Below, one piece after another: positions 42,316 to 49,211 of a stretch of 64,000 nt of DNA. The notes under the pieces are model-generated. The model was not told the DNA's origin and made no database searches. It saw nothing but the letters and a program-made list of their open reading frames with translations. Positions within the stretch are counted from its first letter, which is position 1, and every line of letters starts with the position of its first letter. This DNA comes from Patescibacteria group bacterium (GTDB lineage: Bacteria > Patescibacteriota > Minisyncoccia > Phycocordibacterales > UBA9973). Made by a program: the position numbers and the translations under genes. The stretch is taken from contig JBBTYN010000002.1 in NCBI GenBank assembly GCA_038061755.1, positions 15,312 through 79,311 on the forward strand, given 5' to 3'.

Positions 42316-43488
42316 TTAATTCTCTATATACCCCGGACTTTTCTTTTGTGAACAAGAGTTACTTCCACAAGTCCATGTCCATTTAGAAGGACTACTTATT
42401 GGATTTGTGCCAATAATAGTGCCATCACCACATGTATAGTGGTTACTAAAACAAGTAGTACCACTAGAAAGTGTACATGATGTATTTGATCCACCATTAG
42501 AACCAAGACAATCCCAGGCAGAAGAACCATTACCATTCGCTGGGGTACCTGAACTACAAGTATTGTAAACTAACGGAGAAGAACAGATACCATTAATAAG
42601 TGCCGGTGCACACTTTATTCCATCCCAAATAGTTCCAGTATCGCAACTCGCAGTGGCTAAGGCAGTGGCAAGTTGTTTTGCATTATTATAAAGAAAGAAT
42701 GCTCTACTTTTATGGGTACTCTCAATTATATATGGAATAACAACACCTGTTTTGGTACCTACATCATAAGTACCGGTAGTTGGGGGCTTAATAGGGTTTG
42801 AAGTTGAAGAAACAATAGGAAAGTTAGCTGAAGTAGCTCCGCTATTATTGGTACTACTAGTTACAGACGACCCAAGAACAATTTCAGGATTTATTACACT
42901 CCAAGAAAGAGTTGTGGTACAACTGTTATTTCCTACTGTTATTATACAATTAGAAGCAGTTAGAGTACTGGACATTGCGGGGGCGACAACAACACCATTA
43001 AAATTGATCCAGCCCACGACTTCACTTCCCCAAGCGTAACCCGAAAAAGCAGTACCCGATAAAGTTACACCATAACTAGTGCCTGTAAGGGAAATCCAAC
43101 CATCCCAACCACTACTGCCATCTCCTCCAGACAGAGCTTTTGCCCAACCAGTCAAGCTACTACCAGCCACTTTGGCATTATCAGCAGTAGTTCCACCTCC
43201 AGTTGGAAAACCAGAAAGTTCTCCAAACTTTACCCAACCAATATTTGATGACCAAGCATAACCAGTAAGATAACCAGTTGTTAAATTTTTAGTTACGCCA
43301 TAACTTGAAGTCGCGCAATTATTACCAGGATTCGTACAATTAAAACTTATCCAGCCAATATTAGATGACCAAGCATAACCAGACATATTGTCCGTAGAAC
43401 TTGCTGAAACTATAATAGGTGAAAGACAAAAAACAAATACTAGAACAAAAATAATTTTCAAGAAAGATTTTAAGAAAGAAATTTTCAT
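42316..43488 (-). CDS. Secreted repeat protein with GYAWSSNIGW(I/V)xF repeats and Cys-rich C-terminus (possible pilus-associated adhesin)
   Basis: Signal peptide; three copies of GYAWSSNIGWISF-like motif; last gene of pilB-led gene string. Confidence 0.4.
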   Translation of the reverse strand: MKISFLKSFLKIIFVLVFVFCLSPIIVSASSTDNMSGYAWSSNIGWISFNCTNPGNNCATSSYGVTKNLTTGYLTGYAWSSNIGWVKFGELSGFPTGGGTTADNAKVAGSSLTGWAKALSGGDGSSGWDGWISLTGTSYGVTLSGTAFSGYAWGSEVVGWINFNGVVVAPAMSSTLTASNCIITVGNNSCTTTLSWSVINPEIVLGSSVTSSTNNSGATSANFPIVSSTSNPIKPPTTGTYDVGTKTGVVIPYIIESTHKSRAFFLYNNAKQLATALATASCDTGTIWDGIKCAPALINGICSSPLVYNTCSSGTPANGNGSSAWDCLGSNGGSNTSCTLSSGTTCFSNHYTCGDGTIIGTNPISSPSKWTWTCGSNSCSQKKSPGYIEN

Positions 43489-43555
43489 TATTTTAATATT
43501 ATACCATTAAGATTACTAAAAAGGGTATAAAATTGAAATCTATACTGTGGATAAC

Positions 43556-43610
43556 GATACTAGCTGATACTAGCTAGATACTAGCTAGGACAGTCCTCGC
43601 TAGTGGTGTC
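43556..43610. repeat. REP-like palindromic element cluster A (tandem GATACTAGCT x3 plus palindrome CTAGCTAGGACAGTCCTCGCTAG)
   Basis: Read directly; homologous to 44283..44315 and 45337..45391. Confidence 0.8.
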
Positions 43611-44271
43611 AAATAAGATAACTTTCCACAAAATTATTAAAAGATTTAGTGTCTCTAAAATAATCAGGAAAGACTTTTTTATTCAAAATATTGCCCTCTA
43701 GCCTATCGACACCAATATAATCTTGATAACTAGAGTACCTATAAGATTTTAGAAAATCTTTCTTTTCACCAAGTGATTCTTTAATTTTCTTTTCCCAACC
43801 GGGGAATTTTATATCAAGTGAATTAAAATGAATATATGCAAAAAGTTTTCGCATATAAATGTCGTCAGACTTTACACATTTTGATTTAAATGGTCCGCCA
43901 AACAAAGCACCTTGTCTTTGATATTTAATATTAAAAAACATTGAATATCCTGTCCCTAATTTTCTCATAAACTTTGTTATCCCTCCATCCACTTCTTGGC
44001 GTATCATTAAATGAAAATGATTAGTCATCAAACACCATGCGCCTATAAATACTAATGGTTTTCCTTTTTCAATCACCATTATTTCTTCATAACTTTTATG
44101 TAGAATGTTTGTTAAATTGTTGAGCTTTATCACATCTTCATTATTTGCAACATATAAAAGCATTATGAATCTTTCATAATCTTTCTGTAATTTAAAAATA
44201 TTTCTTTTATCAATTCCTCTATTCCAAAGGTGGTAGTATTCACCAGTGACAAAAGGATCTTTTCGCAACAT
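43609..44271 (-). mobile_element. IS200/IS605-family Y1 (HuH) transposase, REP-associated tyrosine transposase (RAYT)-like
   Basis: EYYHLWNRGIDKRNIF, HuH motif LMTNHFHLMI, YQRQGALFGGPFKSKCV...YIHFN; flanked by REP-like palindromes on both sides. Confidence 0.7.
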
Positions 44272-44282
44272 CTATTTAATAT

Positions 44283-44315
44283 AACACACTAGCTAGGACA
44301 GTCCTAGCTAGTGTT
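44283..44315. repeat. REP-like perfect palindrome B
   Basis: AACACACTAGCTAGGAC-A-GTCCTAGCTAGTGTT, 12 nt upstream of the transposase start. Confidence 0.85.
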
Positions 44316-44344
44316 AAAAAAACAGTCCGAAATATTTCGGACTG
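44316..44344 (-). terminator. Rho-independent terminator of 44395..45156 gene
   Basis: Perfect palindrome CAGTCCGAAATATTTCGGACTG followed by T7 on minus strand. Confidence 0.7.
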
Positions 44345-44394
44345 CCCAATGATAGTTTTAACAAAATCATCAGAAATGAAAATTTTTGGAGATA

Positions 44395-45156
44395 TTAACG
44401 GGACCAAATCGGCATCAGATTTTCGTCAATATAAATGCTGAATACCAGCCCGGGCATACCTTGTTTAAAGGTGGAAAAACTTACATCCCAGGTCGCTTTT
44501 GACTCAAACGATCTAGCCAGGTCAAAAATCGCGGAAATATTAATTAACTCCTTCACATACTTGTTTCCGCTTAATTTTATTCCCCCGATATCCCCCGCGG
44601 CGTAATAATAATGAATTTTGTTGTTATTTTTAACGACCCAGGGGTACACAACTTTGTAGAATGTATTGAACAAATAGATCTCGGGGGAATTTACCACTTT
44701 GGCAAATTCATCCTGCATTTGAAACCCCGCGCCATTTATTTCAACCTCTTTTTTGAGGCTCCCTTGTATCTGCCAACTTTCGGACATGGTCCGATAATTA
44801 ATCGACGCGCTAACGCCGTTTTTTCCCGCTTCCTGCAAATGACCCAATGGGTGTATTAACGCCGCCGATACGAATCCAACAGAAGCAAGGCGGACAGCTT
44901 TTTCCCCAAGTCCGGCATCGTAAAAATTTATTAAGCCGGTCTCACTGGAATAATCCACATTATTTCTAATTTTCCCCGTTTCATTAGGGTTTTTGAAAAA
45001 CTTCACGTCCGCAATCCAGATTTTTTCGGAACTCGCAACGTTTTCCGTCTGACCCTTCCTATATGAAAGGGCGAGTATTAAATTTTCTTCCGCCGAAGCC
45101 ACGGAAACCGTTGCCAACAACATTGCCGCAACCAAAATCCCGATTATCTTTTTCAT
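44395..45156 (-). CDS. hypothetical secreted protein (elevated GC)
   Basis: Signal peptide MKKIIGILVAAMLLATVSVASA; GC visibly higher than genome background. Confidence 0.4.
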   Translation of the reverse strand: MKKIIGILVAAMLLATVSVASAEENLILALSYRKGQTENVASSEKIWIADVKFFKNPNETGKIRNNVDYSSETGLINFYDAGLGEKAVRLASVGFVSAALIHPLGHLQEAGKNGVSASINYRTMSESWQIQGSLKKEVEINGAGFQMQDEFAKVVNSPEIYLFNTFYKVVYPWVVKNNNKIHYYYAAGDIGGIKLSGNKYVKELINISAIFDLARSFESKATWDVSFSTFKQGMPGLVFSIYIDENLMPIWSR

Positions 45157-45336
45157 CCCGCACCTCCAAAAAATTTTAGATTATTTTATTGTAAAAGGAC
45201 AAAAAACATCCTTTATTGATTGTTTAATGTATTATACTACTTTTCTATTTTAAAGTCAACTACTTAGAAATGTAGGGTAATTTCTGCGTAATTTGTAAAA
45301 AATTATTTATTTTCCAATTTTTCAATGCGAGATTTT

Positions 45337-45391
45337 ACACACTAGCAAGGACAGTCCTAGCTAGCCTTTAGCTAGGATTGTTCTTGCTAGT
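45337..45391. repeat. REP-like element doublet C (two inverted copies)
   Basis: ACACACTAGCAAGGACAGTCCTAGCTAG and TAGCTAGGATTGTTCTTGCTAGT (inverted relative to the first). Confidence 0.75.
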
Positions 45392-45404
45392 ACTTGCCAA
45401 CATC

Positions 45405-46445: not shown

Positions 46446-46709
46446 TTATTTAAGACTTTCGGAGATTCTTCTTTTTAGTTGTCCTAACGCTTTTCCATCT
46501 TTCTTTAGATTATATTCTCTCGTTCTGGCGTCATGCTCATTAGCGCAAGCTTCATAATAACGAATTTCAAATGGTCTCCTTGCTTTAGTTGAACGATTAA
46601 GTCCATTGTTGTGTTCCGAAAGTCTTCGCTTCAGATCATTAGTTGAACCAATATATAATTTTTCATCTTTTAGACTTTTTAAAATATACACATAGTACAT
46701 AATAACCAT
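46446..46709 (-). CDS. Small GIY-YIG nuclease-family protein (YhbQ/Slx1-like)
   Basis: YYVYILKSLKDEKLYIGSTNDLKRRLSEHN GIY-YIG motif, conserved Arg, Glu, Asn. Confidence 0.7.
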   Translation of the reverse strand: MVIMYYVYILKSLKDEKLYIGSTNDLKRRLSEHNNGLNRSTKARRPFEIRYYEACANEHDARTREYNLKKDGKALGQLKRRISESLK

Positions 46710-48315: not shown

Positions 48316-48930
48316 TTACGCTAAAAATTCTTTAACTTTTTCTTGAAAGAAAACTTGCATGTTTGTTTTTGATTGTTGTTTCTGAAGCCAGATAATCGCT
48401 TCATCGTCTAAATCCTCTGGTGATGTTAACTGCTCGCAAAACAATCTATCATTAAAAGTGTCATTATATTTTTCTTTTGCATCTAAAATTAGTGTTTCTA
48501 AGGTTGCATGTTTTTCAAAAAGAATAAAATATAAATCAACATAATCCTTAAAAGATCGCCTACGTCCAATGGTATAGGCTTTCATAGAAGCAATATCTAA
48601 AACAGAAGCTAGCGGTACAATGTTTGTATCAATAGTTTTATATTTCAAAATGAATGGATAATGCAAAAAAGTCATCTTAACATTTTCCACCATCAAAGTA
48701 AGTTCATTTTTTGTATTTACTAAAACAGAAACGGAATTGAATTTTTCTTCAATTTTTACAACTAAAGTTTTCTTAATAGGGTCGGGTGAAAAAAAATCTA
48801 AATCAACAGAAATACGATGCCCTATTTGTAAAGCTAGAGCTGTGCCTCCAGCTAAATAAAAATTATCACGCAAAAAACCACACATATCCCAAACCTTTTT
48901 TGTTTCTTGATTTAATGATTCGTAATGCAT
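48316..48930 (-). CDS. AbiEii/AbiGii-family nucleotidyltransferase (type IV toxin-antitoxin toxin-like)
   Basis: FYLAGGTALALQIGHRISVDLDFF N-terminal NTase motif characteristic of DUF1814/AbiEii. Confidence 0.6.
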   Translation of the reverse strand: MHYESLNQETKKVWDMCGFLRDNFYLAGGTALALQIGHRISVDLDFFSPDPIKKTLVVKIEEKFNSVSVLVNTKNELTLMVENVKMTFLHYPFILKYKTIDTNIVPLASVLDIASMKAYTIGRRRSFKDYVDLYFILFEKHATLETLILDAKEKYNDTFNDRLFCEQLTSPEDLDDEAIIWLQKQQSKTNMQVFFQEKVKEFLA

Positions 48931-48941
48931 ATTTTTTTAAC

Positions 48942-49211
48942 TTAAACAAACATCATACGCGCTAATTTTATGGCAGAAGGTCTGACAGCTGAAACAGAAA
49001 TATTATTGAGAACTTTTTTGACTTCCGGAATACCATAAAAGAATTTTATCCAACGCCAATGCTCAAAATTGCCATATAAAATGGTATTTGTAATAATTGT
49101 ATTTTTCATCTTTATGGGATCACATTTTTCAAAATCATATGACCATAATATAGACTTAAAATTATTAGGTATTTTATTCATATATACATTATAACATAAT
49201 TTAGATTGCAT
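48942..49211 (-). CDS. hypothetical small protein, possible cognate partner of AbiEii-like gene
   Basis: 89-aa ORF 11 nt upstream of and co-directional with NTase gene; no motif recognised. Confidence 0.3.
   Translation of the reverse strand: MQSKLCYNVYMNKIPNNFKSILWSYDFEKCDPIKMKNTIITNTILYGNFEHWRWIKFFYGIPEVKKVLNNISVSAVRPSAIKLARMMFV

Follow-up and report, generated by a model that had tools for sequence, protein, structure and literature searches.

What does a transposase-like gene set between hairpin-forming palindromes do in a bacterium of the Patescibacteria, a group whose small genomes (about 1 Mb) are believed to have room for very little non-essential DNA? This question is raised by a 64,000-nucleotide stretch of contig JBBTYN010000002.1 from a Patescibacteria group bacterium (assembly GCA_038061755.1, positions 15,312 to 79,311), hereafter called the window, in which a gene for a 220-amino-acid protein lies among copies of a single palindromic sequence. 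The partnership of repetitive extragenic palindromic (REP) sequences with a REP-associated tyrosine transposase (RAYT) is the textbook example of coexistence between a domesticated transposase and a short-repeat population, and to our knowledge nearly all characterised systems come from Proteobacteria, Cyanobacteria and Bacteroidetes. We propose, with a probability of roughly 0.7, that the locus is a REPtron/TIRtron-like unit, in which a RAYT-type HuH endonuclease is combined with a cognate hairpin that also recurs within the lineage as extragenic repeats of low copy number. The RAYT-type gene is bracketed by its cognate hairpin-forming palindrome, and the features concerned are the following:

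43556..43586: three tandem partial copies of 10-11 nt, each comprising the outer arm and its flank (GATACTAGCT), which abut the downstream palindrome
43580..43605: downstream copy of the palindrome, ACTAGCTAGGACAGTCCTCGCTAGTG, with one stem mismatch, starting 3 nt past the RAYT stop codon
43609..44271, reverse strand: RAYT-like gene of 220 aa, HuH/Y1, class-2 TnpA_Y1 (from the open reading frame (ORF) listing, Pfam, alignment, AlphaFold and fold search)
44278..44283, reverse strand: TATATT, a -10-like box separated from the ATG by 6 nt and matched in position by TATAAT in orthologues
44286..44314: palindrome with perfect 14-N-14 symmetry whose centre lies 29 nt upstream of the RAYT start codon
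45341..45391: doublet, in which a good copy occupies 45341-45365 and a degenerate one 45367-45391

When the window was searched with the 23-nt core CTAGCTAGGACAGTCCTAGCTAG, allowing up to three mismatches, matches were found at 43581, 44289 and 45342 only, all three loci falling within 1.9 kb, against a chance expectation of 0.00 (zero matches in 100 dinucleotide shuffles). A preliminary description of this DNA had reported three loci of one palindrome family around the gene, a threefold repeat at its 3' end and an inverted doublet about 1 kb beyond, and all of these are borne out: the repeat GATACTAGCT starts at 43556, 43566 and 43577, and the degenerate fourth copy (45369-45391) pairs with 45341-45363, the doublet being foldable as a single hairpin with 23-nt arms that are 91% complementary. 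The palindrome upstream of the gene is likewise the perfect dyad that had been described, with a length of 29 nt (14+1+14) and not 33 nt, and its measured end lies 14 nt from the ATG (44271), where 12 nt had been claimed. As single-stranded DNA, the three loci fold far more stably than shuffled sequences (z from -2.7 to -7.3, about -7 for 44286-44314). The doublet is situated 14 nt past the stop codon of a 238-aa gene and upstream of a promoter-like site of a 253-aa gene. One contig (L008, Logan contig ERR3858116_133214) begins inside this doublet, an assembly break at the palindrome of the kind expected where sequence is repeated or hairpin-forming.

Judged by its sequence motifs, the encoded protein is a Y1/HuH enzyme of RAYT type that falls into class 2 through its Y-x-x-x-N signature. 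The blocks GEYYHLWNRG, MTNHFHLM, KYQRQG and AYIHFNS can be read in the ORF at 43609..44271 on the reverse strand, and all the hallmarks for which the gene had originally been singled out (YHLWNRG, HFHLM, YQRQG and YIHFN) are among them. In the profile search proposed at that stage, residues 58-148 aligned to the Pfam family Y1_Tnp (PF01797) at 25.4 bits against a cutoff of 23, a marginal score that is backed by the fold and leaves the assignment standing. No match to the protein was obtained with the IS200/IS605 models of NCBIfam, and no C-terminal Bac_DnaA_C or helix-turn-helix (HTH) domain was detected by Pfam at E up to 1. The HuH motif corresponds to N84-H85-F86-H87 and the putative catalytic tyrosine to Y146 within YIHFNS; none of these residues, nor H148, N150 or S180-S181, varies among 32 homologues, and the HuH motif and Y146 are at least 90% conserved across 133 sequences. 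An SS tail motif, YRYSSYQDY, is located at residues 177-185. Across 128 full-length family representatives the motifs take the form NH[FY]H, Y[IV]HLNP and [WY]SS[YF], and from the family consensus YIHLNP of the Y-x-x-x-N-P signature the window protein (YIHFNS) keeps the N and replaces P by S. Compared by motif table alone with the classes of Quentin 2018 (PMC6006769), the protein most closely resembles subclass 2.1 / TIRYT, and not E. coli RayT, in having NHFH, LFGG (F kept, Q replaced by G), the family motif YIHLNP, YSSY and a length of 220-238 aa.

The fold agrees with this assignment. An AlphaFold (AF2) model built from a diverse alignment of 133 sequences reached a pLDDT of 95.6 and a pTM of 0.92 and places Y146 in the helix 137-149; a model built from 32 close homologues only (pLDDT 50) was not usable. 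A Foldseek search with the good model returned as its top match in the PDB 4ER8_A (E 4.7e-6, target-normalised TM-score 0.66), which is E. coli TnpAREP bound to a REP hairpin, followed by 2XM3, 2XMA, 2A6M and 2VJU; ISDra2 and IS608 TnpA are among the top matches. Sequence identity to 4ER8 is only about 12%; in PDB sequence searches, the single protein retrieved nothing relevant, a profile of 32 sequences chance matches only, and a profile of 133 sequences weak matches (E ~0.05) to ISDra2 TnpA and 4ER8.

Close homologues number 869; the best 120 share 66-79% identity with the protein and measure 220-243 aa; the best non-self matches are 77-79% identical, and near-identical copies between species were not seen. 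Clustering at 50% identity yielded 12,589 clusters at E<=1e-3, 3,145 at E<=1e-10 and 221 at E<=1e-30. Annotations of the homologues (Nomurabacteria, Paceibacterota, Colwellbacteria and 'Patescibacteria group') correspond to the Patescibacteria/Parcubacteria group, and the exact 220-aa protein is encoded on 18 contigs, all of them from Hainich groundwater metagenomes. A far more divergent class-2 Y1 gene with 29% identity was observed in Nomurabacteria contig MFUV01000013.1 (L019, 4030-4898); it carries the motifs YHVINRAN, NHFH, GHLYQGRYKS, YVERNP and WKFSS and has the canonical palindrome and a TATACT box in front of it, and one hairpin type may here serve two protein lineages in the same genome.

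Beyond the window, the palindrome constitutes a low-copy extragenic repeat family that is conserved across many Parcubacteria species. We scanned one genome per GTDB species for the exact pattern TAGCNAGGACNGTCCTNGCTA, with genomes sampled as 8-kb blocks and about one match expected by chance (18 specified bases per 35 Gb). The core was present in at least 118 listed blocks from at least 79 GTDB species genomes, nearly all of them metagenome-assembled genomes of Patescibacteria; the source genome is not among them, since identity to the window does not exceed 84% in any of the listed blocks. When mismatches were allowed, the count rose to 216 copies in 0.92 Mb versus 2 in shuffled sequence. 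The consensus reads TAGC(A 81%/T)AGGAC-N-GTCCT(T 82%/A)GCTA, the central base being free and the surroundings poorly conserved, and the flanking repeat has the form TAGCAAGGAC-N-GTCCTTGCTA. Dyad pairing is maintained beyond the core through covariation: at offset +1 the two sides are complementary in 110 of 151 copies versus 44 expected, with all four pair types represented, and the excess continues to offsets 4-6. At the variable position within the core, 120 copies have the pair A-T and 11 have T-A. The canonical palindrome was also met on a pair of short contigs binned outside Patescibacteria, a 2956-bp 'Pacearchaeota archaeon' contig (L035, JBAZWF010000006.1) and a 1655-bp 'Chitinophagales' contig (L015, JBBQPX010000476.1), both probably the result of mis-binning.

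The copies are strongly concentrated between genes. Fully intergenic copies amount to 126 of 152 (~83%) versus ~17% non-coding DNA (by crude ORF calling, 83% coding), and 14 more merely touch the end of an ORF, where the TAG of the motif serves as stop codon; the extragenic enrichment that had been suggested as a check is thus evident in the genomes of relatives. Across all four spacer types, tandem, convergent and divergent spacers included, copies occur in the proportions of all spacers, and their median distance is 50 nt to 3' gene ends versus 93 nt to 5' ends. The sampled blocks contain 1-8 copies per genome, with at least 8 copies on 6 contigs in one genome. The RAYT gene is found once in 82 kb here and at one locus per sampled genome, where several solo palindromes stand on other contigs; among the matches listed, a RAYT homologue is present in only 19 of the at least 118 blocks. 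Most copies lie far from any RAYT gene, and the solo copies are intact, perfect palindromes. Their flanks bear genome-specific signatures, such as GCTAcac, which recurs five times in CAYPQU01, and tttTAGC...GCTAatta, of which JBAYUN01 has three. Among the 216 copies there are only 36 neighbouring pairs separated by no more than 300 nt, at spacings of 15-283 nt, and so the REP doublets (REPINs) for which a test had been suggested are not the main form, the units themselves being symmetric. The clusters, the partial arm duplications and the genome-specific flank signatures point to copying events. Most copies are not followed by a T-tract. A known RNA family was rejected as an identity for the palindrome, Rfam giving only a sub-threshold chance match (ATPC, 20.9 vs 45 bits), and so was phage or viral carriage, since viral contigs yielded 0 matches to the palindrome and 0 relatives of the protein.

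Where the gene is present, its position relative to the palindrome is well preserved. In about 15 species the palindrome is centred some 40 nt upstream of the RAYT start codon (29 nt in L043 and in the window), and in about 15 species a second copy lies 14-64 nt past the stop codon, extra copies often being nearby. These post-stop copies are often much longer hairpins, with arms of up to ~20 bp whose extra stem pairs vary between species (covariation). Alignment of the region upstream of 16 loci revealed the succession of arm TTGCTA, 17 nt, (TGA)TATAAT, 6-8 nt and ATG, from which we infer a sigma-70-type promoter with its -35 element inside the palindrome and a nearly leaderless transcript. 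Spacing in the window is 11 bp shorter, which puts the palindrome over the -35 element and the spacer of the presumed promoter; a consensus promoter scan called no promoter at 44278..44283. Outside the RAYT loci, -10 boxes are not enriched at 15-19 nt from the arm of solo copies, and an operator or portable-promoter role for them was rejected because this spacing is absent and their spacer types match the background.

Two kinds of rearrangement were noted beside these palindromes. Tandem duplications of 8-13 nt, comprising the outer arm and its flank, occur next to RAYT-proximal palindromes in many genomes (window 43556-43586, L018 4652-4724, and the upstream regions of L033, L087, L125 and L128), and may have been left by slippage or by the cutting and resealing of DNA at the foot of the hairpin. 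In Nomurabacteria MaH-04nov19-107 (L109, CALRET010000001.1, 5560-7200), three RAYT units are nested or in tandem, unit 1 being cut after ~42 codons and unit 2 after ~184 codons, and at each break the sequence passes directly into the palindrome of the following unit, with its TATAAT box and ATG. Identity between units 2 and 3 is only 77%, which makes them two diverged alleles head to tail, and the layout suggests recombination or insertion at the palindrome boundary.

In distant homologues, the palindrome changes together with the protein. This comparison drew on 7 representatives at 34-51% identity and 80 metagenome loci at 34-66% identity, whose genes are flanked by quite different palindromes, for example CCTGCAAGGTCTTGCCTTGCAGG (L147), GTGCGAAGGGTGGCCCTTCGCAC and TGGCGTCATTCAATGACGCCA. 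An exact word of at least 12 nt was common to both 150-nt flanks in 36 of the 60 loci for which the two flanks could be compared, versus 1 of 82 displaced controls. Two distant homologues located near canonical palindromes (L056 and L078) have the variants CAGCAAGG...CCTTGCTG and GCACAGGCAAGG...CCTTGCCTGTGC at the same promoter-proximal position. In several loci a copy of the locus-specific palindrome also lies inside the RAYT gene, ~180-270 nt from its start (L178 at 3270, L186 at 3184, L188 at 3185/3214, L198 at 3175 and L204 at 2963).

By analogy with characterised enzymes of this class, the protein would recognise the palindrome as a hairpin on single-stranded DNA and would cleave and rejoin DNA at the hairpin foot, H85 and H87 being the likely holders of the metal ion and Y146 the likely nucleophile. 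Such cleavage and rejoining could maintain copies and occasionally spread them in trans. The upstream copy appears to overlap the gene's own promoter, its outer arm TTGCTA presumably serving as the -35 element in most species, and owing to this overlap the binding of the protein, or the extrusion of a cruciform, probably auto-limits expression. The long hairpin past the stop codon probably ends or stabilises the transcript.

Several observations weigh against the proposed REPtron/TIRtron-like unit. Binding, cleavage, mobilisation, autoregulation and termination are drawn from the E. coli TnpAREP and IS608 paradigms together with the anatomy of the locus, and would have to hold here by that analogy; the perfect 10-N-10 dyad equally suits a dimeric binder of double-stranded DNA. 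The 64-kb window and ~18 kb of adjoining contig (~82 kb in total) contain no further copies, and any dispersal in the source genome would be an extrapolation from its relatives. The extragenic distribution, whose absence had been named in the preliminary description as grounds for rejection, is documented in the genomes of at least 79 relatives, and neither of the two refuting tests named there, when run, overturns the reading. Ten contigs from the Hainich population are identical at all three sites and give no sign of current activity, an identity that is in itself uninformative. The base before TAG is variable (C 48%, A 19%, G 17%, T 16%), with no GT[AG]G guide tetranucleotide, and the protein fails the NCBIfam equivalog model of E. 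coli RayT (NF047646, REP_Tyr_transpos) at 26 bits against a curated cutoff of 80. The palindromes of distant homologues rarely recur off the gene flanks within +/-3 kb, and much of the wider family may be a gene plus two ends and not a dispersed repeat. The system is therefore atypical in its perfect symmetric palindrome, the lack of a GT[AG]G foot, its low copy number and its subclass-2.1-like motifs. Of the REP/BIME (bacterial interspersed mosaic element) plus RAYT architecture initially put forward, the gene with dispersed, extragenic cognate palindromes in relatives stands, whereas the canonical REP does not, given the missing GT[AG]G foot, the few doublets and the low copy number.

Of the rival explanations, the strongest, still an unlikely one in our judgement, treats the palindrome-gene-palindrome segment (~735 bp, 43580-44314) as an IS200-like insertion sequence able to move autonomously, its palindromes acting as the subterminal hairpins of the left and right ends (LE/RE) and the solo copies being excision scars or decayed copies. 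In the comparison with L043, the nearest GTDB relative (78%), nucleotide similarity begins exactly at one palindrome and stops exactly at the other (43580-44312), the flanks being unrelated, and most homologues are found in different gene neighbourhoods; both facts fit an insertion sequence and speak against vertical descent. The truncated copies of L109, each of which abuts exactly the palindrome and promoter of the copy that follows, the distant homologues, usually with two flanking copies only, and the fold, which also matches IS608 and ISDra2 TnpA, fit it as well. An IS200 transposase would, however, be expected to carry Y-x-x-x-Q, and the class-2 motif Y-x-x-x-N of the present protein is joined by the failure of the NCBIfam IS200/IS605 models and by the lack of tnpB nearby. 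Sampled genomes have one gene locus and several solo palindromes, the solo copies are intact, perfect palindromes with genome-specific flanks and not decayed ends, and between species the closest non-self matches stop at 77-79%. There is also partial synteny at 62-65% protein identity: L110 (62% RAYT and 78% PilB identity) has the order RAYT, palindrome, pilB, pilC, and in L018 (65% RAYT identity) a homologue of the window's 238-aa protein lies directly upstream of the palindrome cluster and the RAYT gene. This partial synteny suggests vertical descent of the RAYT unit.

Less probable again is a palindrome that works as a host cis-element, namely the operator of a dimeric regulator, a bidirectional terminator or an RNA-stability hairpin, with the Y1 protein a domesticated binder that no longer moves DNA and with dispersed copies that are regulatory. 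The perfect 10-N-10 dyad, the strong hairpins, the unusually conserved core, the overlap of the upstream copy with the -35 element of a conserved promoter and the position of copies nearer to 3' than to 5' gene ends would all suit such an element. Solo copies have no preferred -10-box spacing, though, and their background spacer proportions are a poor fit to a regulon; most lack a following T-tract, the clusters, arm duplications and genome-specific flanks point to copying, and the invariant catalytic HuH motif and tyrosine argue for retained chemistry. As for three palindromes arising by chance or local duplication with no functional link to the gene, the confinement of all three to 1.9 kb of the ~82 kb covered is what might favour it, and we give this explanation practically no credence: it is refuted by the shuffles, with zero matches expected, by recurrence of the same arrangement in about 15 species and by the flanking-word rule in distant loci (36/60 vs 1/82). 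A bolder form of the REPtron/TIRtron-like proposal, which we hold only tentatively and at somewhat under even odds, would see an ancient and largely vertical RAYT-palindrome partnership in the Parcubacteria group, in which dozens of species from several candidate phyla retain one 21-bp core, the hairpin provides the -35 element of a leaderless promoter (a self-limiting REPtron), and each enzyme of thousands of 50% clusters, whose motifs resemble those of the supposedly REP-less subclass 2.1, has its cognate hairpin; it would be the first REP-type system described in ultra-small, streamlined genomes and a new structural type of REP.

The surroundings of the unit in the window, which has a GC content of 32-40%, include these further features:

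42316-43488: gene of 390 aa, its function not recognised by Pfam, with a signal-peptide-like N-terminus
44315..44344, reverse strand: intrinsic-terminator-like hairpin CAGTCCGAAATATTTCGGACTG followed by a T-run (from the inverted-repeat listing and reading of the sequence)
44395-45156: gene of 253 aa, upstream of the RAYT gene, followed by the terminator-like hairpin 44315..44344

The hairpin at 44315..44344 terminates the 253-aa gene and stands outside the palindrome family. Pfam found no family for the neighbouring 253-, 238-, 390- and 77-aa proteins, and no tnpB occurs among the neighbours of the window's RAYT gene. The 253-aa and 390-aa genes, both with signal-peptide-like N-termini, are situated between the palindromes and neighbours that are syntenic in L018 and L110; on account of that partial synteny, they are suggested to be later, lineage-specific insertions adjoining the palindromes. 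At 46446-46709 there is a stand-alone GIY-YIG nuclease gene (87 aa), homologues of which are found a few kb from palindrome copies in L036, L043, L048, L052 and L075; this proximity may be coincidence, such genes being present in several of the blocks examined. An AbiEii-family toxin gene (204 aa) and an adjoining DUF6922 gene (89 aa), likely a toxin-antitoxin pair, occupy 48316-49211. About 8-10 kb past the end of the window (L217, 1-1616), an S-adenosylmethionine synthetase gene is split by an intein with a LAGLIDADG domain.

In the literature open to search, no description of RAYT or REP in Patescibacteria or of this palindrome was retrieved, in keeping with the original suggestion of a possibly undescribed REP family in a low-GC, reduced genome, and the palindrome/RAYT system in this bacterial group is apparently undescribed. 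If the REPtron/TIRtron-like reading is true, the REP/RAYT partnership is present in Patescibacteria despite their streamlined genomes, and Y1 proteins of subclass-2.1-like type own cognate hairpins where earlier surveys had found none. The REP core would then be nearly unchanged over many species, in contrast to the species-specific REPs known so far, and the palindromes particular to each clade would offer natural enzyme/hairpin pairs for studying how HuH enzymes read hairpins. The conserved promoter within the hairpin would suggest a simple autoregulatory circuit, and the 21-mer would be useful as a marker of Parcubacteria genomes, in the assembly of which it would also risk causing breaks.

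Compared with known systems, the locus combines traits of several. A canonical REP has a 5' GT[AG]G at the foot of an imperfect hairpin, and E. coli-type copies run into the hundreds; the REPtron is reportedly an E. coli-type RAYT (TnpAREP, PDB 4ER8) with its REP/BIME sequences (Nunvar 2010; Ton-Hoang 2012; Messing 2012), and a REPIN (Bertels & Rainey 2011) is said to consist of two inverted REPs with a fixed spacer. The present system resembles the E. coli REPtron in its single HuH/Y1 gene, in hairpin repeats that lie on both sides of this gene, cluster beside it and are also dispersed intergenically, in 4ER8 as the top fold match, and in the co-variation of protein and repeat. It differs from it in having a perfect 10-N-10 palindrome without bulges and without the GT[AG]G guide, 1-8 copies per genome in the sampled blocks versus hundreds, the same core in at least 79 species, a presumed -35 element lying inside the hairpin, and a protein of 220 aa with an SS tail, only ~12% identity to 4ER8 and 26 versus 80 bits with the RayT model. 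With the TnpA of IS200/IS605 it shares the HuH/Y1 fold and a compact layout in which hairpins stand close to both ends, and it departs from those elements in its Y-x-x-x-N motif, single copy in the sequence sampled, lack of tnpB, solo hairpins that outnumber genes and partial synteny.

Further parallels are found elsewhere among the TnpA_Y1 classes. E. coli-type RAYTs form subclass 2.2 of Quentin 2018 (PMC6006769), in which subclass 2.4 is described with 'double-foot' REPs, the motifs NH[IFV]H, WQ and YIxNNP, and in-frame REP insertions in the gene. Like these, the present palindrome is a symmetric hairpin with a foot on both sides (N-TAG...CTA-N; ~17% of copies are GTAG...CTAC), and an internal copy lies within the gene in some distant homologues; unlike these, the first foot base is variable, the protein motifs differ and the window gene has no internal copy. 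For subclass 2.1, the same survey gave the motifs NH[YF]H, FQ/WE and Y[IV]HLNP, an SS tail and a length of ~238 aa, and found no REP-like sequences; Group 1 of Bertels 2017 (PMC5581495) has flanking 16-mers with ~12 occurrences, and the TIRYT/TIRtron of Di Nocera 2013 (PMC3733652) has the TIR consensus GGGGWSAS. Our system agrees with this assemblage (subclass 2.1/Group 1/TIRYT) in NH[YF]H, in F-x replacing W-x before G-x-F-K-S, in Y[IV]HLNP, the SS tail and ~220-240 aa, and in inverted or self-complementary flanking repeats that belong to low-copy families. It has neither the GGGGWSAS consensus of TIRYTs nor a C-terminal Bac_DnaA_C/HTH domain detectable by Pfam, and its host phylum, Patescibacteria, was not among the groups covered by the surveys of Quentin, Bertels and Di Nocera. 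In contrast to Quentin's subclass 2.1, the proteins described here are accompanied by a clear cognate hairpin.

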